From a virus (taxonomy: Duplodnaviria > Heunggongvirae > Uroviricota > Caudoviricetes): a DNA stretch of 64,000 nt. The stretch is from IMG/VR virus record IMGVR_UViG_3300029544_000001; one strand, 5' to 3'. The position numbers were made by a program, and so were the translations under genes. Shown one piece after another: positions 1,929-46,398 of this stretch. Every line of letters starts with the position of its first letter. Positions within the stretch are counted from its first letter, which is position 1. The notes under the pieces were generated by a model. That model ran no database searches, was not told where the DNA came from, and was given only the letters and a program-made list of their open reading frames with translations.

Positions 1929-2420
1929 CTAAGTATTTTCATCGGTCATACTATTTTGAATAACATCTGATATTTGTTGGAGGGAGTCAACAGATAACTG
2001 AAAAAGGTCTACTGACTTTATCTTGGTTATAAGTTGTTTCTTTCTTATCATTTCATAATATTGCTTTTTCAGACTTTCAGTAAGTACTGAAATGTAACTA
2101 CTACCCCATGTATCTGCCGGTATCTGACGACCATTTTGCTTTCTAAACTTTTCGGTTCCACAAATGATAGTAGTTGGAGTAACACGGTCTACTTTGAGTA
2201 TTTTTGAATAATAACGAGAATTATAATACACTTCATCTCCCGCTTCTATCTCATCCAGTGATTTTTTCATTTTCTGTTTTCTTATAAATGATTCGTAATG
2301 TTTACAAGGTTTCTTTCTGGCTGTAATTCGTCTTTTTAAGACTTTGCAATACATATAGAAATTCGTACATATCTCATAATGTTTACACTCGCTACAATGC
2401 CTATCATCATCTTCTTTCAT
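1929..2420 (-). CDS. hypothetical Cys-rich protein
   Basis: 163-aa ORF, CxxC pairs near the N-terminus. Confidence 0.4.
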   Translation of the reverse strand: MKEDDDRHCSECKHYEICTNFYMYCKVLKRRITARKKPCKHYESFIRKQKMKKSLDEIEAGDEVYYNSRYYSKILKVDRVTPTTIICGTEKFRKQNGRQIPADTWGSSYISVLTESLKKQYYEMIRKKQLITKIKSVDLFQLSVDSLQQISDVIQNSMTDENT

Positions 2421-2425
2421 ATCTT

Positions 2426-2947
2426 TTATTTCAGATATTCTTTATTAAAATGATGATTTTTAGTGAGCCATTCTATCATAGACACACAGCATTCAATTGG
2501 AGTATCCTCGATATGTGTTCCAACCAAACAATCTGCTGTATATCTCCGAATTGACAGATTATACCCCAAAGCATGTTTTATCAGTTCTGGATGATGTGCT
2601 TCAAATCCTGGTTTAGGATCTGGAACTTCATTAGGCAGCATTTCCAACAGTCTCGATAAGCTCCATGCTGGAATATCCCTACCCCATATTTCATCAAACG
2701 CTTCTTCTCCGGTCATAGGCGTTCCATCCGGATGCTTATGAAAAGGCAATTCTAACTTTGCTATTCTTTGAGGTGTCCAAAATTTGCCTCTCAATGTTGG
2801 TGGAGTTGGTTTTAATTCCCATTCTAATGCAGGTACTTTACTTTTGGTATAATGATACACCATATCGGCCGTTTCTAATTTCAATCCTAAAGAAAGCAAT
2901 CTTTCCGATTGCTTATGGGTAGTACATATTTGTGATTCAAAGTTCAT
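2426..2947 (-). CDS. hypothetical protein; paralog of 14604..15038
   Basis: shared motifs ETAD.VY, LEWEL, IPAWSL.RLLE.LP, HHPELIK, GTHIE, CVSMI.WL, KEYL. Confidence 0.55.
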   Translation of the reverse strand: MNFESQICTTHKQSERLLSLGLKLETADMVYHYTKSKVPALEWELKPTPPTLRGKFWTPQRIAKLELPFHKHPDGTPMTGEEAFDEIWGRDIPAWSLSRLLEMLPNEVPDPKPGFEAHHPELIKHALGYNLSIRRYTADCLVGTHIEDTPIECCVSMIEWLTKNHHFNKEYLK

Positions 2948-3018
2948 TTTTTGTTCCTTTTATTTTTAGTTTTCTATATAATGATTACCTTTGTAGTTCT
3001 AATTAAATCTGATAAATT

Positions 3019-3216
3019 ATGAAGAGTCGATATTCTTTATTCATCTCCGCTTGTAAAGGAGCTGATTCGCAAGGTAAATTTGTTTACCTGCATGGAAGAG
3101 GAGAGTTCTCTGGTGCGCGTGGTGCATATAATTACTGTAAACGCACAGGAGATAAGGTTGGCGAATTAGCCATATATAATTGTGTGGTTAACCGTAAAGG
3201 AAAAAAAGTTTATTAA
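3019..3216 (+). CDS. small hypothetical protein (65 aa) with its own terminator
   Basis: ORF followed by hairpin TGGACCGGAAAATTTTCCGGTCCA plus T-run at 3221-3250. Confidence 0.4.
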   Translation: MKSRYSLFISACKGADSQGKFVYLHGRGEFSGARGAYNYCKRTGDKVGELAIYNCVVNRKGKKVY

Positions 3217-3220
3217 TCTA

Positions 3221-3250
3221 TGGACCGGAAAATTTTCCGGTCCATTTTAT
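3221..3250 (+). terminator. Rho-independent terminator
   Basis: 10-bp perfect palindrome followed by TTTTATT. Confidence 0.6.
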
Positions 3251-3258
3251 TATTTTAA

Positions 3259-3975
3259 TCATTTTACAATCTCCCAATCTTCGGCAAACACATCACTGAT
3301 GGATGGAACCCACGAATCAGCACGACCAGTATTCTCGTTGTAAATAAGGCACTGGCTTGTATAGTCAATGAAACCCTTGCCTTTTAAAATAAGGTCTTTT
3401 GCCGATTGATGAAGTGACTGCATCTTCGGAACAATATCGCTTTCGATGTGTGCCGGGACTTGCTTGATGACCCACAACCCCTTTCCATTCCAACCTTTTC
3501 TACGAATAGCAAGACCAAATTTCAACGCTTCGATTGCAACTCCGAAAGACATCCGATTAAACGGAGCGTTAGGAGCACCGTCAAGACATCCAATACGACA
3601 TTCAAGTGTTTTCACGTAATTACCCATCACTACTTGCTGTAAACGTAACAAGAATTTTTGGTAGTTGTCTGTTACCACTTCATCCATCTTTCCAGAATCA
3701 ATGAAAGCAACAAGTTTATCCAACTTATCATACAAGTCTTTCATCTCAATGTGCAAACGATCAAGAAAGGTATCTGCATACTTGTAATATTTCTCAAACG
3801 GTTCGGCAGGCAACCAACTTCTGTAACCATCTTCACCTTTAACATAATAACCTTGCTCTGTTTCTTCATGGTTCTCAATGTCCTTACCATAGGGATTTCT
3901 ACCTGTTTTTTGAACGAAACTGCCCAATGTCATAGGTTCGGCTTCAATCTGTCTTGTTCCAATATACTTTTTCAT
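3259..3975 (-). CDS. phage protein with C-terminal DUF2829-like module (M.FG.A.EALK.G..IRRKGW...)
   Basis: 238 aa; C-terminal motif MSFGVAIEALKFGLAIRRKGWNGKGLWV recognised by eye. Confidence 0.4.
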   Translation of the reverse strand: MKKYIGTRQIEAEPMTLGSFVQKTGRNPYGKDIENHEETEQGYYVKGEDGYRSWLPAEPFEKYYKYADTFLDRLHIEMKDLYDKLDKLVAFIDSGKMDEVVTDNYQKFLLRLQQVVMGNYVKTLECRIGCLDGAPNAPFNRMSFGVAIEALKFGLAIRRKGWNGKGLWVIKQVPAHIESDIVPKMQSLHQSAKDLILKGKGFIDYTSQCLIYNENTGRADSWVPSISDVFAEDWEIVK

Positions 3976-6820: not shown

Positions 6821-7025
6821 GTTTTTTGATAATTAATTTAATGATGTTAATAACTGGATAGCAAACCCCAAAACATATAGCAATTCCCAACCAAGCGTCA
6901 ACATGATTGAATACTCTATTGCCTATGAATAAGACCGCTATCATAAAAAAGAATTGTTCTATATACTTTTTCATCGCATATTAAGTTTGGTATATTTCAA
7001 AGAACTCTTATTGACTTATGTCATT

Positions 7026-7111
7026 GTGCCGCAAACAGGAGTCGAACCTGCATTATCCATTCGGACAAATGGATTTTAAGTCCATCGTGTCTACCAATTC
7101 CACCATTGCGG
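7026..7111 (-). tRNA. tRNA-Leu (TAA), long variable arm
   Basis: 86 nt; acceptor GCCGCAA/TTGCGGC, anticodon loop CTTAAAA, T-arm GCAGGTTCGACTCCTGT. Confidence 0.85.
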
Positions 7112-7362
7112 CATCATCTTATCAAGCCTTAAAGAACAAAGAAAAAATCCGGATAAAGAATGAGTTTCGGGTTTTCATCTTCTCCAACTCTTTATTGTCT
7201 TTTCTCAATTTCTTAATGTCTGCTTTATTGGAAGACACGTGTGTTTTAGCTCTCGTATTCAACTCCACTAAGGACTGAACCAATTGTCTCAAATTGGCAA
7301 TAATATTTGCCCTTTCAGATATGATTTGCTCTTTCATACTATAATTAATTTAATTAGTTAGT

Positions 7363-7435
7363 GGCGGAGAGCCGGACTCGAACCGGCGACCTCTTGGTTA
7401 TGAGCCAAGCGAGCTACCAACTGCTCCATCCCGCT
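7363..7435 (-). tRNA. tRNA-Met (CAT) with defective acceptor stem (5' AGCGGGA versus 3' TCTCCGC); possible pseudogene or 1-nt indel
   Basis: D-arm, anticodon arm (CTTGG-CTCATAA-CCAAG) and T-arm (GCCGG-TTCGAGT-CCGGC) are canonical; only 4 of 7 acceptor pairs form; restoring GCGGAGA would give 7 of 7. Confidence 0.6.
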
Positions 7436-7720
7436 ATGTAACGGCTATTTATGACTAAGTATCTTAACAGCCGTTAGTTGACAGAATTTTGAAAAACTGT
7501 CCTACTTTGAAAGATTCTTCTTACCTTTGCGAATATATGCCAATCGCATGGGTGCTGATTGCCTTTACAATGAGAAAATGCCTACGAATAAGAGTGGATT
7601 TCGATGTAGCCGCATCGTTAAAATCTATCGCTGACATTATCTGGGCTTTCAGAGGAAGAAAGACTTCCAACAAATGATGATTTGTATATCTCAATCCTCC
7701 AGTTCTCTTGCTGGAGGGTT

Positions 7721-8119
7721 TTATTTGTTTCCAAAATCAGCAGGGGTCTCACCCCATTCTTTGTTGTTCCAGTGTCGGACTTCAATTGTATCAACATCCC
7801 ATGCAAGAGTTTTAAGAAATATCTCGGCTTTCTGAAGTTCTTTGCATTTCTTCTTGGATGCTGTTTTTTTGTTTTGAAACCAAGCTATAGCTGTTATACT
7901 ATCTGTATAGATAATTCTGGGAGAATAATCATTTTCTATGATATATTTTGCTGCTTCAACAACACCTAAGAACTCACCAATATTCACCGTTTTATTACCC
8001 AGGTTCTGATAAAAGATCCGCTTACCGGTCCGTAAATCTATCCCCTGAAACTCTGTTATTTTATTTTTCGTGGAATGAGCTGCGTCTGTAGCTATTCCCT
8101 CTACTGGAATTTCTATCAT
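7721..8119 (-). CDS. RNase H (RNase HI-like)
   Basis: IATDAA (Asp), GNKTVNIGEFLGVVEAAKY (Glu), IYTDS (Asp), HWNNKEWGETPAD (His/Asp) motifs in canonical order. Confidence 0.65.
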   Translation of the reverse strand: MIEIPVEGIATDAAHSTKNKITEFQGIDLRTGKRIFYQNLGNKTVNIGEFLGVVEAAKYIIENDYSPRIIYTDSITAIAWFQNKKTASKKKCKELQKAEIFLKTLAWDVDTIEVRHWNNKEWGETPADFGNK

Positions 8120-19354: not shown

Positions 19355-20992
19355 TTATGCAACCTTACGTTGCGTTGTTACTAATATTTTACATAATGCC
19401 TCACAAAGAACTCGTGCCATATTAACTTCTACGGCATTTCCTATATACTTTTTCTGTTCTGCTTTTGTTCCTATTAGCATATAATCTTCTGGGAATCCCA
19501 TAATACGTTTCAACTCTGGAATCGTTAGCATTCTCATTTTTATGTCGGAAATACCATACATAGCCATGAATTCCTTTATTTTCTTCATTACATCACTATC
19601 TGTGTCATATATCTCATATACCAGTCCTCCTGGAAACATCTTAATAAAGCCAGGTAGCTCTCCCTCTCCAGATGCTTCAATCAAATATGGTGGCATCTTA
19701 TCCATTCTAGCGATTAACGTAAAACAAGGTTTATCTACTGATCCACCAGCAGAATTAAATTGAGGATTCATCAAGTAATGCCATTTACGGTTTGCAGTAA
19801 TTACTGGTGCCGGTTGATTTATACTTGTGCCAACATTCTTAAAATTTGTATTTAAAATCCAAGGTTTACAGCTTACAAGGCTATATTTGGGATTAACAGT
19901 AATACAACCTAGTGGTTTATCCAGCGAAGAAGGCTTACTGTTTCCGTATTGTTGGTCAATAAACACAGAAGAAATTAATGAAAATCGGTCTTTTGTTGTT
20001 ACAGTTGGTGCTGGTTCATCTACAGATTTACAAAATCCATTTCCATAATGAACAGAAATAAATGCTTTTCCGGTTAGAATATTTAAACGGTTTATGCAAG
20101 CAACACCAAGTCGATTTTGAGTAGATATTACTGGACATGGATCCTCAACTCCCAGAGCATTGTACTTTCCAGCTTTACTCATTGAGTTATACTTAACCAT
20201 GAAGGCATCTTTTCCACCTGCTACAAACTTAATAAGTCCTGCATAAATTCTTAATAAAGAAGAATCTACTAAAGGTGTTTTCCGACCAAATATACTTTTC
20301 CCTTCATCATCAAAGTCTAACACTTCTCGTACTGCCTTCCAGTTCTTTAATTTTGGGTCTGGCTTTTTAGAATGGGTTTGCTCTGGAAAAACAATAGGTA
20401 AACTCCCTTTCGCAAATATTCCGAAAAATCTCTTCCTAGAAGTGTAAGCCCCATAGTCTGCTGAATTTAATATTTTATGTTCAAATTTGTAGCCATAAGA
20501 CCTTACGCTATCCAGCCATCTCAAATAAGATTTACCTTTATCACGACTAATGGGTTTACCGTACTCATCCAAATCTCCCCATGACATAAACTCTTCTACA
20601 TTCTCAATTTGAATATAGTCTGGGTTAATAGCCTCAATATACCGAAACAAGTGCTCTGCAAGTGTTCTACTATCTGCATCTCGTGGTTGACCACCTTTAG
20701 CTTTCGAGAAATTAGTACATTCCAACGAAGCCCATAAAACTATCAATGCTTCAGGGTATTCAGCTCTGCATTTTTGTAGATGGGAAACTAAAGGAGATAA
20801 ATTTAGTGTACGAATATCTTCTGTAAAATGAAGAGCGTCCGGATGATTAGCAGCATGACTTGCAATCGCATTTTTATCATGATTTACACATGCTATTACC
20901 TTAGCACATTGTTCATTCTCTAAACGGGCTTTTTCTACCCCTGTGCTGGTTCCACCGGCACCACAAAATAAATCTATATAAAGTAATTTCAT
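19355..20992 (-). CDS. DNA (cytosine-5)-methyltransferase, no recognisable adjacent restriction endonuclease
   Basis: motif I DLFCGAGG, PC-like ASLECTNFSKAKGG, ENV in IQIENVEEF, motif X GNAV; 545 aa. Confidence 0.75.
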   Translation of the reverse strand: MKLLYIDLFCGAGGTSTGVEKARLENEQCAKVIACVNHDKNAIASHAANHPDALHFTEDIRTLNLSPLVSHLQKCRAEYPEALIVLWASLECTNFSKAKGGQPRDADSRTLAEHLFRYIEAINPDYIQIENVEEFMSWGDLDEYGKPISRDKGKSYLRWLDSVRSYGYKFEHKILNSADYGAYTSRKRFFGIFAKGSLPIVFPEQTHSKKPDPKLKNWKAVREVLDFDDEGKSIFGRKTPLVDSSLLRIYAGLIKFVAGGKDAFMVKYNSMSKAGKYNALGVEDPCPVISTQNRLGVACINRLNILTGKAFISVHYGNGFCKSVDEPAPTVTTKDRFSLISSVFIDQQYGNSKPSSLDKPLGCITVNPKYSLVSCKPWILNTNFKNVGTSINQPAPVITANRKWHYLMNPQFNSAGGSVDKPCFTLIARMDKMPPYLIEASGEGELPGFIKMFPGGLVYEIYDTDSDVMKKIKEFMAMYGISDIKMRMLTIPELKRIMGFPEDYMLIGTKAEQKKYIGNAVEVNMARVLCEALCKILVTTQRKVA

Positions 20993-23924: not shown

Positions 23925-25097
23925 TTATGATCTACAAACACAGATATATTCCCCAGCAATCTTATATTCTTCATGCCGTCCATCCCAAGAATTAAGTACC
24001 GAGCACCAACCATCCTCATTTATGATTGAATCCAACCAATCACTCAATGAATCAGTAGTTCTTTGAGCCGCCACAGATTCACGCCATAAATACGCGTATT
24101 CATCATCATTATGTACTATATCATTAGCTATATTGGTCAGTTCATCTTCCGTGCCAATATAATAATCAATACCATTTGCACAGTATAGTTGTTCACCATA
24201 GGAACATTCTTCAAATGTATCATTCAAATCACCGAATGTACATCCCAAATGTACTCCCAAAGCTACGAAGCGTTTTGCTTCATCTTCGTCACATTCACGT
24301 AAATCCATTACTTGCTGGATGATTTCTTTTGTGGCAATAAACCCTTCTTTCCCCATGTCAAAAACCGCTTCCAGTTCTTCTGTTAACGCAGTTTCTTCTT
24401 CTTCAACAAGGTCACAAATATTATTTATGATCCCTTCAATATTATCTGGAAGCGGACTGTATAACCAGCCATTACCATATTTATATCCATTATCTACATA
24501 TAAGCCTTTTATAGCAAGAAAGAAACATTTTACGTTGTAGTCTGAAGATGTATGGAAGCATTTGTTTGACAATCCAAGGATATATTGAATGGGATTATTC
24601 CTCATTTTCTCATAAAGCACATTTCTCACCTGTATTATAGCCGCGTCACTAATATTAAAATTCTTAACAAGAATCTGAAAAGAAATATCATCAAACTGTT
24701 CACGGTAATGTTCATTATATGTTTTAAACAACTCCACAAAGTAATTGTAGTCGTTAACATATTGCTCACCGTTTAAATATTCATCTTGACGAACTGTACC
24801 GCCAGACATACCACCTAGATGATATTTGTTCCAAAATTCCAAAAGTTTCTTTTGTCCTTCTGTACGAGGATTTATATGATCGTAGCATTGCCCAGCACTC
24901 ATACCACCAGCCCCACATACCGAAACGCTGAAACTTTGTTTAAATTTTTGCAATGTTTCACGGTTTATACGAGTAGATTCTTCTTTATAAACCTCAAAAT
25001 CTACAGTCCAACTGTTTTTATTTTGGTCCCGAAATTGGACGGAACGTTTGAATATTATATCGTTTCTCATAATCAATCTTTCTAATTTTATTTTCAT
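23925..25097 (-). CDS. hypothetical protein
   Basis: 390 aa; no P-loop. Confidence 0.45.
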   Translation of the reverse strand: MKIKLERLIMRNDIIFKRSVQFRDQNKNSWTVDFEVYKEESTRINRETLQKFKQSFSVSVCGAGGMSAGQCYDHINPRTEGQKKLLEFWNKYHLGGMSGGTVRQDEYLNGEQYVNDYNYFVELFKTYNEHYREQFDDISFQILVKNFNISDAAIIQVRNVLYEKMRNNPIQYILGLSNKCFHTSSDYNVKCFFLAIKGLYVDNGYKYGNGWLYSPLPDNIEGIINNICDLVEEEETALTEELEAVFDMGKEGFIATKEIIQQVMDLRECDEDEAKRFVALGVHLGCTFGDLNDTFEECSYGEQLYCANGIDYYIGTEDELTNIANDIVHNDDEYAYLWRESVAAQRTTDSLSDWLDSIINEDGWCSVLNSWDGRHEEYKIAGEYICVCRS

Positions 25098-25148
25098 AAA
25101 CCAGAGGAAATGTACCTAAACTGGTTTATGAAAACTGCCTTGATTAAG

Positions 25149-26138
25149 TTATTTACGCCATTCCTTCATTTTAGCAACCACATCAATGTTGTTGTCATCC
25201 AGCGTTTTCTTCAACATACCAATCAAACGCCAACCTTCTCTATTCTCGTACAACTTTGCCTTCTTATTCAAAAAAGCAAGGGACGCGTTTTTACTTAATG
25301 TTTTTCCATTGTCATCAATGATAACGCAATTATGAAAACGAATCATGTTCTGCATTGTAAAGAACGCTCCAGCTCCTTTGTAAGCATCTAGCCATGCTGC
25401 ATTTTGAGGAGTACCCCAATGCATTTTGATACGCCTTTTATTGAACTCCTGCACCGAATGCCAAAGTTCATAAGTGTTTTCGGCATGTTGTATTTTATGT
25501 ACTGCAAACAACAATGGCTTGATTACTTTTTTATCAAAATCATCAACGAAAATGTTTTGGCCGTTGATACGTTTATACGGTACCCCTTTACATTTTCTCA
25601 ATTTCAACTTCTCAAATCTCTTTTTGAGTTTCTCGATATAGTCTTTTGCCATATCTAATACCACTCTTTTGTTGAACCAGCGATTTCGATCTCTGAAATT
25701 ATCGACATCACCATTCTGCATCATTTTGTGCTGGGCGTACAACTCGTTATTTAGCATCTTCCACTGATATTCATATCCCATATTACGAATCACCTCTGAA
25801 ACTCCAATTGGCTTATAAGCACCGTGGGTATTGGTAGTTATATAAATTATGCGGAACATCTGTGCCATTACCCAACGTCTGAATAATTGCCGATTAGGAA
25901 TTGTGCCTTGAATTATAATGGCCTGGAAGATTGGATCATCTTCTTCCAAGATACTAATGACACCATCTCTTTTTGAGGCTATAAACTCCAAACCATCTGC
26001 ACTTTGCATTGCAAAAAGCTCACTAACATCAACACCAGCTTTCTTTAGAGCTTCAATACGCTCCTTAGCTTTGGTTTGATTAGCTGTAAGCGTAAACTCG
26101 GTACCACACTCAGGACATTCAAATTTTAACTGTTTCAT
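25149..26138 (-). CDS. hypothetical protein with N-terminal zinc ribbon (CPECG)
   Basis: 329 aa. Confidence 0.45.
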   Translation of the reverse strand: MKQLKFECPECGTEFTLTANQTKAKERIEALKKAGVDVSELFAMQSADGLEFIASKRDGVISILEEDDPIFQAIIIQGTIPNRQLFRRWVMAQMFRIIYITTNTHGAYKPIGVSEVIRNMGYEYQWKMLNNELYAQHKMMQNGDVDNFRDRNRWFNKRVVLDMAKDYIEKLKKRFEKLKLRKCKGVPYKRINGQNIFVDDFDKKVIKPLLFAVHKIQHAENTYELWHSVQEFNKRRIKMHWGTPQNAAWLDAYKGAGAFFTMQNMIRFHNCVIIDDNGKTLSKNASLAFLNKKAKLYENREGWRLIGMLKKTLDDNNIDVVAKMKEWRK

Positions 26139-26172
26139 AACTTATTAATAATTTAATTTTTAGTCTGATTAT

Positions 26173-26769
26173 TTATTTCTCTACTGTAACCCAGTTTTTG
26201 AGAATTACTAAATCTCTATCTTTGTTGCTTTGCCAAAACCATTTACCCATTTTATTAGCATCCCAACCTATACCCAATATTATTTGACAGAGAATGTATA
26301 ATTCCAATTCGACTTGTGCTATATCTCGACCAACTCCAAACAACATGTCTTCATCCTCCAAATCTTTATCAGACAAAGCCTTAAAGTATTTTCGGCTTTT
26401 ACATTCACTCATTGTTGATGGAATAGAATGTTTATATCGAGTATATAAATGCTCTACATTAGACAGAAACTCATCAAGAGAAGCGCATAATTCCACACCT
26501 AAGTCTCCCTCATACTGCGAATTCTGTATAATATATTGGCCATTAAGTTTGAAACTTCGTGTTTTAAAATCTACTTTAAACTTGGTTCCGTTCTCTACAG
26601 CCTGTATTGATTCTTGATAAATATTTTTCATAATGTTTACTTTTGATTTTATACTCAAACCTTTGACACATTTCTTTAAAAGCCTGATATTAACATCCAG
26701 AATACGCCGGAATAAAGGTTTATAAAACCGTAGATGCCGGCGTAATTGTCGGATAGTTGTTAAACGCAA
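26173..26769 (-). CDS. hypothetical protein
   Basis: 198 aa. Confidence 0.4.
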   Translation of the reverse strand: MRLTTIRQLRRHLRFYKPLFRRILDVNIRLLKKCVKGLSIKSKVNIMKNIYQESIQAVENGTKFKVDFKTRSFKLNGQYIIQNSQYEGDLGVELCASLDEFLSNVEHLYTRYKHSIPSTMSECKSRKYFKALSDKDLEDEDMLFGVGRDIAQVELELYILCQIILGIGWDANKMGKWFWQSNKDRDLVILKNWVTVEK

Positions 26770-26866
26770 GGTTCTTGTATAAATGAAAGTTGTGTTACTT
26801 ATAAAACAGCCCCCATTTAGCGTGACACATGTCTATATGTTTATGATATATACTGTATCAAGTAAT

Positions 26867-26918
26867 GCCCGCGTAATCCTAGGTCATACATAGGATGACC
26901 GTCATCACGCGGGCATCA
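26867..26918. repeat. nested perfect hairpins (ATGCCCGCGT...ACGCGGGCAT enclosing GGTCAT...ATGACC)
   Basis: 10-bp outer and 6-bp inner perfect inverted repeats. Confidence 0.5.
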
Positions 26919-27099
26919 TATCTTGTCCAGTATGTTAAATTACTAAATCCCAGACTGTAAACTTTGTGTTAAGTAATAAGTTGTAATTCTCAAAATATTG
27001 GCACATTTCTATACTTATTCGATTTAAAGCTGGTGTGATCAGGAACGGACCAGGACAATTAGTACTCGGCCCTTCCTGATATATAACCAGCTATATAAA

Positions 27100-27649
27100 T
27101 GATATTTCTTGAATTACATTTCTGTGCTAAATAGTTATCCTCATAATACTGATACATTACTTTACCCAATAGATGTAATCCGGTTGGATTATCCTGGACC
27201 CGACAGATATAATCTTCGGTTCCAGGATATAATTTCTACCGGAGTAGTGAAAATATATTCCTTGGATAACTTCGATGTATTTCGCTTATTTTACAAGTCC
27301 TCAAATGAATGGCACATCACTTTACTCTCATGATAATTATAAATATGACCTGATCGAGAACCTGAGGTGAGAGGCTATGCAGCCTTGTAACCTCCGGTGA
27401 ACGATCAATAGTTCATACTTTAGAATATGAAATTTTCTTCTTGAACTTGCCTGCTGTGCTGCTTTATAAACCCTCATAACAATCGACACATTTCTTTATC
27501 TTCATTGATATAATCCAGATGATTATATGGTACCCGGAGTAGATACTGAAGGATGTAATCCTTCAAGGATAGAATCGGGGTACCTAATATATAATCTGGA
27601 TATTAAACACTTGTTCCTCGGATTCATTTACTGTGTGTTCAGATTGTAG
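27100..27649 (-). other. structured non-coding region downstream of the RT gene with two related hairpin modules (27160-27290 and 27500-27600)
   Basis: shared CCGGAGTAG and GATATAAT motifs; long-range pairs GGTACCCCG/CCGGGTACC and TCCTGGAACCG/CGGGTCCAGGA. Confidence 0.35.
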
Positions 27650-28918
27650 TTACAATATTGCCACTAAAGTATTGTACGCTGCTCTTCTGGTCAAAATAGC
27701 ATTCTGCATACAACCTATTGTCAAATAACCTTCAATTTCTTTACTCTTAGATTTATTTCGATTAGCCTTTACGTTCCGACCAATACCTCTAACAACACAA
27801 CCATCCGGCTTATCCTTAACATAGCCAAGGCCACCAACTTTATGTTTCCCAGTTTCAACGGCTCTAAGGCAATCCATTACGAATTTATTCAATTCATTAA
27901 TATCAACCCGAACATTACATACTGGAAGGGTCTGAGTCGCCCAACTATATTCTCCATTGCCTTTATATAAATATCGGTTAACCGAATCCACAGCCTTCTT
28001 CAACGTAATACCACGTTTTCTGATGGTTCTTGATTCTATTTCTTTCTGGAAGGTTTTAAGACGATTGGGAGAGAAAGAAATCATACTTCCCTTAATGCTG
28101 AAACCTAGAAATTTGAACCACTTGTCCATAGTCAGGTACTCTACTTTCTTGGGATTCAAATTCATTGATTTTTCGGCCAATCTCTTTTGTAAAATGGTCA
28201 TAGCCTTTTCATAGTCCGGACCAACGAACAACATATCATCCGAATACCTTACGTAAAACCCATTCAATTGGGACAGTTCATCATCCAAGCTATATAGCAA
28301 CACGTTGGCTAACCAGCTTGCTACTGCGCATCCTTGTTTAAGTGATTGATATTTCTCATGCAGTTCGTTGTTCTCATCGAAATACAATCCGCAATGATAG
28401 TATTTTCTTAATACATCAATTAACACAGAGTGACCATACTTAGCTTCCACCTTATCAAAAGCTGCGTCAATAAACCGGATAGGAACAGTGTCGAAATATT
28501 TACTTAAATCAGATTTCCAGCCCACATAACCATCACTTTTCATGTCAACAATTGTGTGACTTACTTCCAGAACCACTTTACCGCAACCAATACCGACCTG
28601 ATAAGATTTACAAGCAGGATGAATCATCTCTGGCATTAAATCAAATAGCAAATCATTCGCGATGCTTAGGATTATACGATCAATAGGTTCGTTGACATAT
28701 ACAGTACGAAACTCTCCGTTATCCTTCGGAATTTGTGCAATATGTGGTGGTGTTATTTGATATTTACCATTCAACATAGCTTCTGCCATACGAATTCTGG
28801 TTGGTTCTTCTGTCAGTTTGATAAGTTCGCTCTTCCGAATATCCTTCAGAACGCCTTTCTCAATTGCTTTTGTCCATCTATTAATGTCGAAGAACATTGT
28901 AAGAATCTTATCTTTCAT
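27650..28918 (-). CDS. reverse transcriptase (RT domains 1-7; class unresolved)
   Basis: IPKDNGEFRTVYVNEPIDRII, DLSKYFDTV, QGCAVASWLANVLL, YVRYSDDMLFVG, NPKKVEYL, FLGFSI. Confidence 0.75.
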   Translation of the reverse strand: MKDKILTMFFDINRWTKAIEKGVLKDIRKSELIKLTEEPTRIRMAEAMLNGKYQITPPHIAQIPKDNGEFRTVYVNEPIDRIILSIANDLLFDLMPEMIHPACKSYQVGIGCGKVVLEVSHTIVDMKSDGYVGWKSDLSKYFDTVPIRFIDAAFDKVEAKYGHSVLIDVLRKYYHCGLYFDENNELHEKYQSLKQGCAVASWLANVLLYSLDDELSQLNGFYVRYSDDMLFVGPDYEKAMTILQKRLAEKSMNLNPKKVEYLTMDKWFKFLGFSIKGSMISFSPNRLKTFQKEIESRTIRKRGITLKKAVDSVNRYLYKGNGEYSWATQTLPVCNVRVDINELNKFVMDCLRAVETGKHKVGGLGYVKDKPDGCVVRGIGRNVKANRNKSKSKEIEGYLTIGCMQNAILTRRAAYNTLVAIL

Positions 28919-29238
28919 TTTATATCTCCTTTCTTTTTGAGTTGTTCCTTATATCTCCTGTGCTCACGAATTGTTGCTGCCCATTCTGCTTTTGTAGGTT
29001 TGTATCGCCCTTCTGCTTTACGTTGTTTTAAACTCTCTTTATTTTTCAAATATTTGTCTGGGCAACAAATAAATTGAATAAGACGCTTGCTCACTCCAAA
29101 TATTTTAGCAAGTTTAGAGTAACTGATTAATTGCTTTTCTCTCAACCATTTTATATATTCTTTTTGGTCTGGAGTGAGCTTTATTCGTCTATCATATTTG
29201 GTTCCAGCGATACGAATCTTTTCTGATTTATACGGCAT
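28915..29238 (-). CDS. small basic HTH protein; paralog of 22925..23233, upstream of the RT with 4-nt overlap
   Basis: MPYKSEKIRIAGTKYDRRIKLTPDQKEYIKWLREKQLISYSKLAKIFGVSKRLIQFI. Confidence 0.55.
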   Translation of the reverse strand: MPYKSEKIRIAGTKYDRRIKLTPDQKEYIKWLREKQLISYSKLAKIFGVSKRLIQFICCPDKYLKNKESLKQRKAEGRYKPTKAEWAATIREHRRYKEQLKKKGDIK

Positions 29239-29830
29239 CGTTTTGAGGAAACATTAAATCATCGTGCAGGTTATTGAGACACCGTTCATCGAACCAACGC
29301 CAGACATCGAACTTTGGTGTTCCGGCTGGGAAGTTGAGGAAGTCTTCTTCAATCTCATCATCATTGTTTACCGGAATATCCCCAAACATTTCCCATAATT
29401 CTGAAAGGGTGCATAATTCTACATGCTCTTCACAAATATTACACCAGCAATCTTCTTCCTCAACTGAATCATTATAGCTGATTTCATCTGTGTTTGGATT
29501 TACCCATGCTCTTTCTTCAACATTATTACTTCCACATTTGGGGCAATACAATGTGTCTAATGACCTTATCCCCTTCTTTTTAAACACTATGTCAAACTGT
29601 TTGAGATTTGAAAGTTCGGTGAGAACCATTTCTGTAATAAAGGCTCTCATCTTATTAATCTGTTCATCTGATGATATTCCCCATATATTAGCCGCAGCTT
29701 GTACTGCATTTTGTATGGAAAAACAGATTTGAGTCCAATCATCATACTCTTTTTTATCTTCGAGGATTTCATGGATTAGCGTTTTTGCTTTCTCAATATA
29801 TTCTTGATTGAATGATTTTGATGTTTTCAT
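29228..29830 (-). CDS. hypothetical protein with zinc ribbon
   Basis: 200 aa; CPKCG ... CNIC. Confidence 0.4.
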   Translation of the reverse strand: MKTSKSFNQEYIEKAKTLIHEILEDKKEYDDWTQICFSIQNAVQAAANIWGISSDEQINKMRAFITEMVLTELSNLKQFDIVFKKKGIRSLDTLYCPKCGSNNVEERAWVNPNTDEISYNDSVEEEDCWCNICEEHVELCTLSELWEMFGDIPVNNDDEIEEDFLNFPAGTPKFDVWRWFDERCLNNLHDDLMFPQNDAV

Positions 29831-30059
29831 ATCCTATTGTGTTAAGTTCTTCTAACAATGACCGATATTCTTGTTCAGTAGCTAAAGGCCAATTTTTCAG
29901 AATGTCAGGAGAGCAACCGGCGTGTTGTCCGATGTGCATATAGCTTGTCAATTTAGTTTTGGACCTATCCCAAAATTCATTCACAAATACAGCACATATT
30001 TCTCCTTCTTCTGGAGATTTTACGAAAGTTATTTTTGTTTCATTTTTCATACATATCAA
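29793..30059 (-). CDS. small hypothetical protein
   Basis: 88 aa. Confidence 0.3.
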   Translation of the reverse strand: MICMKNETKITFVKSPEEGEICAVFVNEFWDRSKTKLTSYMHIGQHAGCSPDILKNWPLATEQEYRSLLEELNTIGYENIKIIQSRIY

Positions 30060-30406
30060 TTGTTGTTATACCATTCTATTTCAGCATCATTTGCTTCACG
30101 ATACAGCATATATACACCACCAATAGTTGAGTTGTAAATAAGGATGTATCCATCCTTTTGATGTACGGAATCAGTGCCATTATTCACCCACCTTGGTTCT
30201 TCGCTGCGAATATCATCGTCAGCCCATTCATCGCTATCCCATTGCTTCAGATAATCAATAACAGCTTCTCCATTCGCATCGGTAAAGACAGTTCCAGACC
30301 CTTTACCATCGTACAGTTTATCACATTCGTCCAGCATATCTCCGTACTGGACATCAATTACAATTCTATAAAGCTTTCGATTTTCCATTGAACTTAAATG
30401 CGGCAT
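30056..30406 (-). CDS. hypothetical protein
   Basis: 116 aa. Confidence 0.35.
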   Translation of the reverse strand: MPHLSSMENRKLYRIVIDVQYGDMLDECDKLYDGKGSGTVFTDANGEAVIDYLKQWDSDEWADDDIRSEEPRWVNNGTDSVHQKDGYILIYNSTIGGVYMLYREANDAEIEWYNNN

Positions 30407-30592
30407 AACTATCTTTTCTTATTGCGTTTACGATCTCTTCTTATTTGTTTCTTATTGCGCCCACTTTTAGTGGACGAACCTTTATATGCAGGAGGAACCC
30501 GTCTCCACGGAGTCGATTTCTCTTCATAGTCTTCTACTCTCTCAAAATAGACGGTAGGTGGATTTTCAAATAATATCATATTCATTCTTTAT

Positions 30593-30841
30593 TTAATCTC
30601 TTGCATCAGCCATTTTTCGGCCTTTAGCTGTTGCTGAATAGATATTCGGTTTATCACCTTTGAAACATTTAGTCTTTATCCATTCATATCTTTCAGCTTC
30701 CCGGAGATAGAATAATATTCCATATTCAGATGTATTTTTCAACCAATCTAATTTCTTGATTTGCTCAAATGTCATAGGGCCGCCATATACAAGCGACGAT
30801 GTTAACATCTGAACTCTTTCTTTCAATGAATATTCACTCAT
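30593..30841 (-). CDS. small hypothetical protein
   Basis: 82 aa. Confidence 0.35.
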   Translation of the reverse strand: MSEYSLKERVQMLTSSLVYGGPMTFEQIKKLDWLKNTSEYGILFYLREAERYEWIKTKCFKGDKPNIYSATAKGRKMADARD

Positions 30842-31037
30842 ATCTATTCTGTTTTGAGGGCTATTTAATTTCTCCTATTTCATATTTCTGTTTACCGAAG
30901 TAAAATCCAAAACATAGCCATTCAAACTCAAATTCATGGTTGTGTAAATTGATATTTATTGCCGGCAACAATGCCCAAAACTGAACATCAAAGTCAATAT
31001 CTATTTTAAAAGTCCTTCTATTCATATCTTATTTATT

Positions 31038-44439: not shown

Positions 44440-46398
44440 TTAACCATTCAAAAATTCACAGAATTCTTCAATTGATAAAATTGGTATCCCCAATAATTTG
44501 GCCTTGGATATTTTTGATGAGTTGGCAGATTTGTCCTTCACCACCAAATGTGTTGTTTTTTTAGACACCCCACTAACAATTTTTCCTCCTTCGTTGGTGA
44601 TTACTTCTTCAAGATTACTATCTCGAAATCCTGATACACAGATGGACAAACCTTTACATTTACCTTCCAGCACAACGGTCTTTGGGGACAATTTGTAAGG
44701 TATTTTAGTTTCCTCTAAAAAGGCCATAAATGGAAAATACCCTAACAATAAGTTTTGTACAGTTATAGGACAATTTTTAAAGTCTTCGCTTTGAACATCC
44801 GGTTCGTGATTGATATACCACCCTTGACAGAACGAGCATAAATCCTCATCATCCATTTCATCCAATATTTTTTGGGCTTTTATTTTTCCTATTCCTTTAA
44901 AGCAATCGCTGGCTTGCATTAAAGTCGCCAAATCAACTCCTTGCATGATTTTTCTGTTATTCTCCAATATTATATTTGAAATACTGTCTCCGAATCCTTC
45001 GATTTTTATCAGATCGTTAAAAGTAACGTTAAGAATCGCCGGTATAGAAGTAAAGCCTGCATTGAATATTTTGGATAATGTTTCTTCTCCCATATTTTCA
45101 GCCCCACATGTCAAATAGAAAAATATAATTTTAGCTAATTGAACACCTGGACAACTAGGATTAGTGCAACACAGTTCTATGTGATTCTCATTCCACATAG
45201 TCGATGAACCACAATGAGGACACTCTGACATTTCATCCCATAATTTTTCTTGTTCTTCTTGTGTTGCTGGGCTAAGAGTTGAGAGAATCTTAGGAATTAC
45301 CCCTCCAGAACGGGTAACTAATATTTCAGCCCCCTTCGCTATTTCGTGATCATTAATCCAACCGGCATTATATCCAGTAGGATTTTCCATGTTACAATCT
45401 CCAGTATCAACCATTTCAATATTGACCACAGGTTTAAGGGCACCTGACTTACTGACTTTCCATACAATACCCTTAACTGTTGTTTCAAAAGATTCTGTAA
45501 AATCTGGATGTTTGTAGGCAATAGCATATAATGGATTTCCAGATGTTTGATGTCTGCCAATAACTTCCCATAAGCGCAAATCATCAACATAAATTACAAT
45601 ACCATCAATTGGATATATCTTACTCCACTCTTTGAATAAATTCATCAGTAGCTCTTCATTCAGTTCATCTATAAAAGCGAAATGGTAAAGATGCTCTTGT
45701 TGATAGATATTACAAATAGTTTCTATCAGACTATGGAAGTTGTTATAATCATGTAGGGAACTCTCATCCACTCCATATCTGAAAAAAGAAGCGTGTTCAA
45801 GATAATCACACGGCTCATCTCTATTTAAAAGACCGGCAGCTGTATTACGTGGTGATTTAAAAATATCTCCTGTGAATTTAGAACGTTTTCCATGAAAATG
45901 TTGCTCCCAATCACTTCTGTTGATGACAAATTCTCCAAAAGTATAATGAAAACTGCTGGCCGGATTATAACATTGAGTGGATGCTTGATAATGGTTAGTA
46001 CAATCTTGTCCTTCATTTTCTATCCCGCCACGAGAATATGCCTCACCTGTTAATTCATTATATAGTAGAGAAAGACCATCCAGCTTAGGCATACATACTA
46101 CACCTGCATTTCCTTTCAAGCCTAAAGACATATACCATTTTTTAAGTTCTGATATATCCTTTACTTTATTTAAAGATTTCATTGGGATTGGCAAAGCCCG
46201 TTTTCGGGTTTCAGACACAAAAGCGGGTTCGGTATGTTTGAACCATTCATTGTCTGGATCAAGTGTTTTTAATAGTTCTATTTCTGCATCATACTCCGCA
46301 TCTGAGATTTCTGGCGTACCCATACGATACATTTTATTGTGTCGCTTGACCCTATCAAGCAACGCATCTTTTGTTTCAACTGTAAAATTAAGCTCCAT
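44440..46398 (-). CDS. ligA: NAD+-dependent DNA ligase (LigA-type)
   Basis: adenylation motif MPKLDG (KxDG), Cys4 zinc finger CPHCGS...CTNPSCP, C-terminal BRCT-like segment; 652 aa. Confidence 0.8.
   Translation of the reverse strand: MELNFTVETKDALLDRVKRHNKMYRMGTPEISDAEYDAEIELLKTLDPDNEWFKHTEPAFVSETRKRALPIPMKSLNKVKDISELKKWYMSLGLKGNAGVVCMPKLDGLSLLYNELTGEAYSRGGIENEGQDCTNHYQASTQCYNPASSFHYTFGEFVINRSDWEQHFHGKRSKFTGDIFKSPRNTAAGLLNRDEPCDYLEHASFFRYGVDESSLHDYNNFHSLIETICNIYQQEHLYHFAFIDELNEELLMNLFKEWSKIYPIDGIVIYVDDLRLWEVIGRHQTSGNPLYAIAYKHPDFTESFETTVKGIVWKVSKSGALKPVVNIEMVDTGDCNMENPTGYNAGWINDHEIAKGAEILVTRSGGVIPKILSTLSPATQEEQEKLWDEMSECPHCGSSTMWNENHIELCCTNPSCPGVQLAKIIFFYLTCGAENMGEETLSKIFNAGFTSIPAILNVTFNDLIKIEGFGDSISNIILENNRKIMQGVDLATLMQASDCFKGIGKIKAQKILDEMDDEDLCSFCQGWYINHEPDVQSEDFKNCPITVQNLLLGYFPFMAFLEETKIPYKLSPKTVVLEGKCKGLSICVSGFRDSNLEEVITNEGGKIVSGVSKKTTHLVVKDKSANSSKISKAKLLGIPILSIEEFCEFLNG

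Follow-up and report, generated by a model that had tools for sequence, protein, structure and literature searches.

The DNA analysed here is a stretch of 64,000 nucleotides (nt) from a tailed Bacteroides phage (IMG/VR record IMGVR_UViG_3300029544_000001; this whole stretch is called the window below), which encodes on its minus strand a reverse transcriptase (RT) of the UG27 group, a downstream tandem array of structured non-coding RNA (ncRNA) units, and the two proteins that accompany this RT group, known as clusters 346 and 337. The reading we favour, at a probability of roughly 0.7, is that this locus is a complete UG27 system in which the RT acts on the array of ncRNA units, with identity and anatomy weighted above mechanism. 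A UG27 system with an ncRNA has been on record since 2022, and in this respect the finding is a correct rediscovery.

UG27 is described in the accessible text of Mestre et al. (PMC9226505) as a Class 2 UG/Abi RT that occurs with cluster 346, cluster 337 and a putative ncRNA from the intergenic stretch that follows the RT; the same text names gut phages of Bacteroidetes and Firmicutes as carriers, counts the complete system in 1447 dereplicated viral genomes, and reports that UG27 is not enriched in defence islands. All five features, namely the RT, cluster 346, cluster 337, the downstream ncRNA and carriage by a gut phage, were found at the window locus, which agrees with the published system in RT family, in both partners, in having structured ncRNA downstream of the RT, and in carriage by a phage of human-gut Bacteroidetes. 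The difference lies in the RNA: the text of Mestre et al. describes one putative ncRNA with three long stem-loops (PMC9226505), whereas here the region resolves into 5-7 or more paralogous tandem units. Judging from term counts only (UG27 74, "ncRNA array" 10, hairpin 33, cDNA 24, cryo-EM 4, Bacteroides 8), a bioRxiv preprint (10.64898/2026.09.22.753630, 24 September 2026) has probably already reported the array, perhaps with experiments.

The RT is a protein of 422 amino acids (aa) encoded at 27650..28918 on the minus strand. Its match to the PADLOC model RT_UG27 (E 4.4e-231) places residues 1-421 on model positions 1-419 of 420, and the second-best model, RT_UG26, reached only E 2.8e-32, followed by UG17 (1.2e-21), Drt9 (2.2e-21) and Drt2 (3.5e-14). 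The motifs YSDD, QGCAVASWLAN and FLGF, which a sequence-only reading of this DNA had singled out as the RT core, are present in the translation, and Pfam RVT_1 covers residues 63-275 (E 3.6e-20). No further domain was found beside RVT_1 in the Pfam search, which fits a Class 2 UG/Abi RT without a fused known domain, and the protein has no close solved structure, the nearest being group II intron RTs (E 1e-13). The sequence-only reading had left the RT class unresolved and proposed a profile search against models of the RT classes; that search gave UG27 clearly as the best model over the full length of the protein, and we regard the assignment to UG27, a Class 2 UG/Abi RT, as almost certain. 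Identical RTs (100%) occur on IMG/VR contigs, and IMG/VR was among the databases searched by Mestre et al. (PMC9226505).

Downstream of the RT is a non-coding gap of 1018 nt (26632..27649). It had been taken for 850 base pairs, with a boundary at 26770 that stemmed from a spurious open reading frame (ORF) extended to a TTG codon. The array within it, delimited with an nhmmer motif and the covariance model R1, spans 26632..27675 on the minus strand, from 26 nt inside the 3' end of the RT gene to the start codon of cluster 346, and consists of six units of 150-175 nt, arranged head-to-tail, and a seventh half-unit. When the gap was compared by BLAST with diverged gaps, only three short conserved islands were recovered, and these matched one another; they are RT-sense copies of a motif close to AYAUCAA-N6-UAAAG-NN-AUGUGYC-N7/8-UGAGAAY...AGCACA, which begin near 27511, 27336, 27176, 27025, 26849 (degenerate) and 26690. 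Outside the gap, nhmmer found the unit motif nowhere in the 64-kb window.

Relatives were collected as two sets, a first of 80 IMG/VR loci with RTs 73-100% identical to the window RT, which yields 53 distinct gaps, and a second of 80 further loci with RTs 54-75% identical; the distant loci were recovered with an alignment query, single-protein queries having yielded little. In the 53 distinct gaps the motif occurs 4-7 times per gap, mostly at a spacing of 150-197 nt, with 502 of 502 hits on the RT-sense strand, and in most related loci the final copy lies about 50 nt ahead of the cluster 346 start. No small ORF in the gap is conserved in the diverged loci. We conclude that the gap is very probably an array of structured RNA units encoded on the RT-sense strand.

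The R1 model, built from unit-3 copies of 19 loci with a hand-derived structure and including a 94% relative of the window phage (L025), gave six hits in the array, all on the minus strand and jointly covering most of the gap: 27027-27176 (E 4.6e-17), 26850-27025 (3.5e-14), 27178-27336 (1e-6) and 27423-27511 (4e-5), and more weakly 26584-26690 (0.012) and 27513-27675 (0.026). These correspond to units that can be followed along the minus strand, each with a long hairpin whose folding energy is given as a z-score against dinucleotide shuffles. Unit 0 (27513..27675; hairpin 27514-27601, z -5.7) has its 5' boxes over the final 26 nt of the RT ORF, and in other loci the equivalent unit stands just after the RT stop codon. 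Unit 1 (27337..27511; hairpin 27349-27408, z -4.6) is matched by R1 in part and by nhmmer at 27521..27452 (E 1e-7), and is followed by unit 2 (27178..27336; hairpin at about 27178-27244, z -4.3), unit 3 (27027..27176; hairpin 27027-27092, z -5.5) and unit 4 (26850..27025; hairpin 26850-26933, z -7.2), of which each is covered by one of the three strongest R1 hits. Unit 5 (26691..26849; hairpin at about 26683-26770, z -3.6) has degenerate boxes, overlaps the spurious TTG-extended ORF, and was recovered by nhmmer at 26859..26789 (E 3e-7) and by R1 in part, at 26822-26849. The half-unit (26632..26690; nhmmer 26695..26646, E 7e-5; R1 as above) has the 5' boxes only and abuts the ATG of cluster 346. 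The hairpins that the sequence-only reading had described are thus real and fall into place: its modules at 27500-27600 and 27160-27290 are the long hairpins of units 0 and 2, and its nested perfect hairpin at 26867-26918 lies inside that of unit 4, but what it took for two related modules is part of a series of six units and a half-unit. One close relative (L023:5267-6457, RT 99% identical) has one extra unit and a gap of 1191 nt as against 1018-1025 nt, about 168 nt longer, so that unit number varies even between close relatives.

Each unit begins at its 5' end with three single-stranded boxes, AYAUCAA, UAAAG and AUGUGYC, and contains a helix P1, in which UUYUGA pairs with UYRGRR. A small hairpin, P2, carries AGCACA as its conserved loop, and a long, GC-rich and nearly pure Watson-Crick hairpin, P3, has a hypervariable tip. 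The sequence boxes between the hairpins, rather than the hairpins, are the best-conserved parts. The P2 stem covaries freely (CUU/AAG, CUG/CAG, CGC/GCG, CCC/GGG). P1 is rich in U.G pairs, which on the opposite strand would be C.A mismatches, indicating that the folded molecule is RNA of the RT-sense strand.

The hypervariable hairpin defeated global alignment with MAFFT and RNAalifold, and units were instead aligned by position and with the covariance model. Among 120 unit copies from 30 sources, 86.1% of the cells at paired positions can pair as against 55.5% in shuffles, a value reached by 0 of 500 shuffles, and although fitting the alignment to the model structure raises the pairing to some degree, the margin is large. 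Changes on both sides of a pair account for 745 cells (about 230 in shuffles) and are seen in 29 of 29 pairs; the covariation score is 0.448 and at most 0.081 when partners are slid. The covariance folding and the search for homologous ncRNA beside related RTs that the sequence-only reading had suggested were thus borne out, in that the structure covaries and the array recurs. Units at the same position in different phages are more alike than units inside one phage, which indicates that the paralogues are old and have been kept individually. In all units the box UGUGY can pair in sequence with RCACA of the P2 loop, for example in unit 4 (UGUGC at 27006-27002, ACACA at 26967-26963). These two elements are among the best conserved of the unit and could represent a tertiary contact or a template-product relationship; their variable positions combine as by chance, with no covariation for loop-loop pairing.

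P3 was present in 92 of 92 non-redundant units, with a mean length of 76 nt, 27 base pairs and a mean z-score of -6.9, and the six P3 hairpins of the window range from -3.6 to -7.2. The share of G.U among P3 pairs is 3.1%, compared with 13.3% in the predicted scaffold helices. Between unit-3 orthologues, identity is 68% in the scaffold, 58% in the basal stems and 29% at the tip, and across 15 close variants nucleotide diversity peaks in the tip of the unit-2 hairpin (27191-27280), where it is about 0.2 as against 0.02-0.03 in the flanking genes. The unit-2 tip of one relative (L027) has a wholly different sequence that retains its pairing. Selection of P3 on the antisense strand was also considered; on average that strand is more stable by 3.5 kcal/mol, mostly an effect of base composition as shuffles already differ by 2.3. 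Comparison of the array with the rest of the 64-kb window returned chance 13-15-mers only, with no guide- or copy-like matches.

The two proteins downstream of the array are conserved with it. Cluster 346 (152 aa; 26173..26631, minus strand) matched the profile RTas346 at E 3.9e-67, and cluster 337 (329 aa; 25149..26138, minus strand) matched RTas337 at E 4.9e-142 and has an N-terminal CxxC zinc-ribbon-like motif followed by helical domains. In every adequately flanked locus of the first relative set the gene order is RT, gap, cluster 346, cluster 337. The mechanical ORF list stretches the cluster 346 gene to a TTG at 26769, over unit 5 and the half-unit; the RTas346 match begins at residue 48 of that extended ORF and nearly all cluster 346 homologues are about 152 aa long, and the true start is therefore the ATG at 26631. 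The proteins P0036, P0048, P0083, P0104 and P0132 are homologues of the two genes. Homologues of cluster 337 bear the NCBI name "ubiquitin carboxyl-hydrolase", a name that nothing in the analysis supports.

The periodic motif persists in the second relative set, where it gave 241 hits with none on the minus strand, and here the arrangement of array and genes begins to change. Two loci have a second array of about five units downstream of cluster 337 (L082:7750-8425 and L083:7758-8650). In L145 the order is RT, cluster 346, cluster 337, array (6992-7800), with the variant box AUAUGAAAC-UUU-UAUAG, and in L146 clusters 346 and 337 (2276-3754) lie upstream of the RT. As the array shifts its position relative to the genes, it behaves like an independent RNA module that accompanies the RT and its partner proteins, and a promoter serving a single gene, cluster 346, is a poorer description. 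In many diverged loci a variant of the 5' half of the motif is also found downstream of cluster 337; this element, about 120 nt past the stop codon, consists of a short palindromic hairpin and then ACAUCRAA-N4-6-UAAAG-NCAUGYCCC (e.g. L049:8316-8420 and L028:8026-8130), and was not detected at that position in the window. The idea that the 3' end of the RT is directly repeated behind cluster 337 was rejected, as the alignment scores lay within the range of random controls.

The cultured Bacteroides phage BS-TP1 (PQ571274.1, L081) carries the whole UG27 system. Its gp79 (L081 4381-5643), annotated as a "tail protein", is the RT (RT_UG27, E 4e-228) and is followed by an unannotated gap of 1350 nt that is tiled with unit hits; an extra gene of 133 aa lies between its homologues of clusters 346 and 337. 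A cultured phage with the whole system makes UG27 function directly testable.

DRT2 (UG2), DRT9 (UG28) and DRT10 (UG17) are characterised Class 2 UG/Abi RTs that each bind a dedicated ncRNA of their own and copy part of it. UG27 resembles them in combining a stand-alone RT, without fused domains, with dedicated structured ncRNA, and differs in that they serve in bacterial defence and have one ncRNA each, placed upstream of the RT, whereas UG27 is phage-borne, has an array downstream of the RT or elsewhere, and has two partners unique to it. The array would be transcribed in the direction of the RT, probably with the operon, and would then work either as one RNA of many units or as separate RNAs of unit size. 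By analogy with these relatives, the RT would bind each unit at its conserved 5' scaffold. We put the chance that the RT acts on the units at about even. Part of each unit would then be copied into DNA, and P3 would be the likeliest template, yielding a set of different hairpin single-stranded DNAs (ssDNAs); P3 is favoured because its scarcity of G.U fits a segment that pairs both as RNA and as a DNA copy, or at the DNA level, but we hold its role as template only tentatively. Clusters 346 and 337 would be accessory or effector proteins. Slightly more speculative is the idea that the array is a multiplexed template bank, a kind of multi-retron in which each of six or more units is copied into a different hairpin ssDNA, with the tips as specificity determinants or as decoys against host defences or rival phages. 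To the phage, the system may be of use in counter-defence, in keeping out competing phages, or in replication or regulation.

Several observations weigh against this reading. That the units are transcribed, processed and reverse-transcribed is inferred, and no template region is identifiable by sequence. The 5' boxes could be signals at the DNA level, as the half-unit before cluster 346 and the half-motif after cluster 337 might suggest, and the analogy with defence RTs may not extend to function, UG27 not being enriched in defence islands. Clusters 346 and 337 gave no significant match in the PDB and no functional clue, and the fitting of the pair-count alignment to the model structure also counts here. 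Finally, one group of RTs that are 58-59% identical to the window RT (L091, L099, L104, L127, L131, L132, L134, L136, L137 and L147) lacks both partner genes and the motif in the 4 kb that follow the RT, and may represent a UG27-like lineage of different layout.

Among other explanations, the units might act purely as RNAs, for example by decoying or soaking up host factors that bind RNA in defence or processing, with the RT using a separate template or none. The hypervariable and fast-evolving hairpin tips would fit an arms race of this kind, and some UG/Abi RTs, such as AbiK, make DNA without a long RNA template. We consider this unlikely, as array and RT are strictly inherited together even where the locus is rearranged and the near-absence of G.U from the long hairpin would be unusual for an element that functions only as RNA.

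A little less probable is that the array regulates clusters 346 and 337 through signals such as promoters, terminators, attenuators or processing sites, with no direct role as an RT substrate. Consistent with this are the half-unit, which in most related loci stands just ahead of the cluster 346 start, the variant 5' half-motif seen behind cluster 337 in many diverged loci, and the AYAUCAA box that immediately follows each long hairpin like punctuation. Arguing against a general phage promoter is the confinement of the motif to the gap within the window, and against a host promoter that the region has no sense-oriented Bacteroides -7 box TAnnTTTG; there are also no U-runs after the hairpins. 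P1 and P2 covary with G.U pairs of the sense strand, which indicates an RNA fold and not a DNA site, and neither the retention of five to seven diverged paralogous units, each kept across lineages, nor the occurrence of the array after cluster 337 or in two copies is what such signals would predict.

The sequence-only reading had likened the locus to retrons and defence-associated RT systems, and of this the kinship to defence-associated RTs and the structured RNA hold while the retron does not. In a retron mechanism each unit would be a pair of msr and msd, giving branched multicopy single-stranded DNA primed from the 2'-OH of a conserved guanosine. The likeness is considerable: retrons also combine an RT with accessory proteins and an ncRNA in which a scaffold of small helices, comparable to msr, is followed by a long Watson-Crick hairpin, comparable to msd; the units have a conserved loop containing UUAGC; and the long hairpin has hardly any G.U pairs, which is what a sequence that must fold both as RNA and as its DNA copy would show. 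Nevertheless, we regard this mechanism as very improbable. The RT belongs to another clade, the best retron model being RT_Ec107-like with a partial match (E 1.6e-9, residues 191-266 only), as against 4.4e-231 for UG27. No inverted repeats of the a1/a2 type bracket a unit, the repeats present being mostly hairpin stems or similarities between units, and retrons have one ncRNA and not an array of many tandem units. Among the UG/Abi relatives characterised so far, priming is by protein or by other modes, and 2'-5' branching is not known.

A group II intron maturase or a diversity-generating retroelement (DGR), for which only the generic RT motifs and the intron RTs as nearest solved structures might speak, can be set aside, in agreement with the sequence-only reading, which had argued against both and named intron boundaries and domains as what would overturn its view: no Rfam family was found at E<=1 in 25000-31000 and no maturase or X-domain in Pfam, comparison of the array with the rest of the 64-kb window gave chance 13-15-mers only and no pair of template and variable repeats, and the RT matches UG27 over its full length.

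In its layout the array also recalls CRISPR arrays and the repeat arrays of phage RNA anti-CRISPRs, as conserved and variable segments take turns with regular spacing and copy number varies between close relatives. It differs from them in that its "repeats" share only about 70% similarity, self-complementary hairpins take the place of spacers, and there are no cas genes.

UG27 is distinctive among UG/Abi RT groups in occurring mainly in phages and not in bacterial defence islands. If the favoured reading of a multi-unit array tied to one RT is true, a single enzyme would have many RNA partners or templates, unlike every characterised defence RT, and a template bank, if it exists, would be a use of reverse transcription on the phage side that has no characterised counterpart in the accessible literature. 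If the units are copied into defined hairpin ssDNAs, multiplexed production of ssDNA in gut Bacteroides might also become possible.

Upstream of the RT is a basic ORF of 107 aa (28915..29238, minus strand) whose stop codon overlaps the RT start by 4 nt. It had been proposed as a helix-turn-helix (HTH) partner of the RT, and while the overlap and the basic character stand, it resembles HTH proteins only weakly (E 0.009 for Pfam HTH_3 and 3e-4 for a PHROG transcriptional regulator) and is not a conserved partner. Among the 80 loci of the first set, this gene and the 200-aa gene upstream of it are confined to the near-identical group, and the place upstream of the RT is taken by a different gene in nearly every diverged locus. 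Within the flanks that were fetched, homologues of the HTH-like protein occur in two other lineages only, L077/78 and L082/83, where they lie downstream of cluster 337; in L082 the homologue (about 40% identity) follows the second array. Counting the lineage of the window phage, the three lineages each have it in another position. The HTH-like gene is a neighbour in the backbone of this phage and not a conserved component of UG27, and the role of conserved partner is held by clusters 346 and 337, which lie directly downstream and had been overlooked.

That the locus is phage-borne, as the sequence-only reading had stated, is evident from the rest of the window, which encodes a portal, head protease, tail sheath, tape measure, NAD-dependent ligase and DNA methyltransferase. 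Homologues of clusters 346 and 337 are present on Bacteroides and Phocaeicola contigs, and the length of some of the Bacteroides contigs, 0.5-6.8 Mb, suggests that the system is also present in integrated form, as prophage. Other ORFs of the window include one that is transposase-like (234-1226), a large DNA methyltransferase (19355-20992) and the NAD-dependent DNA ligase (44440-46398).

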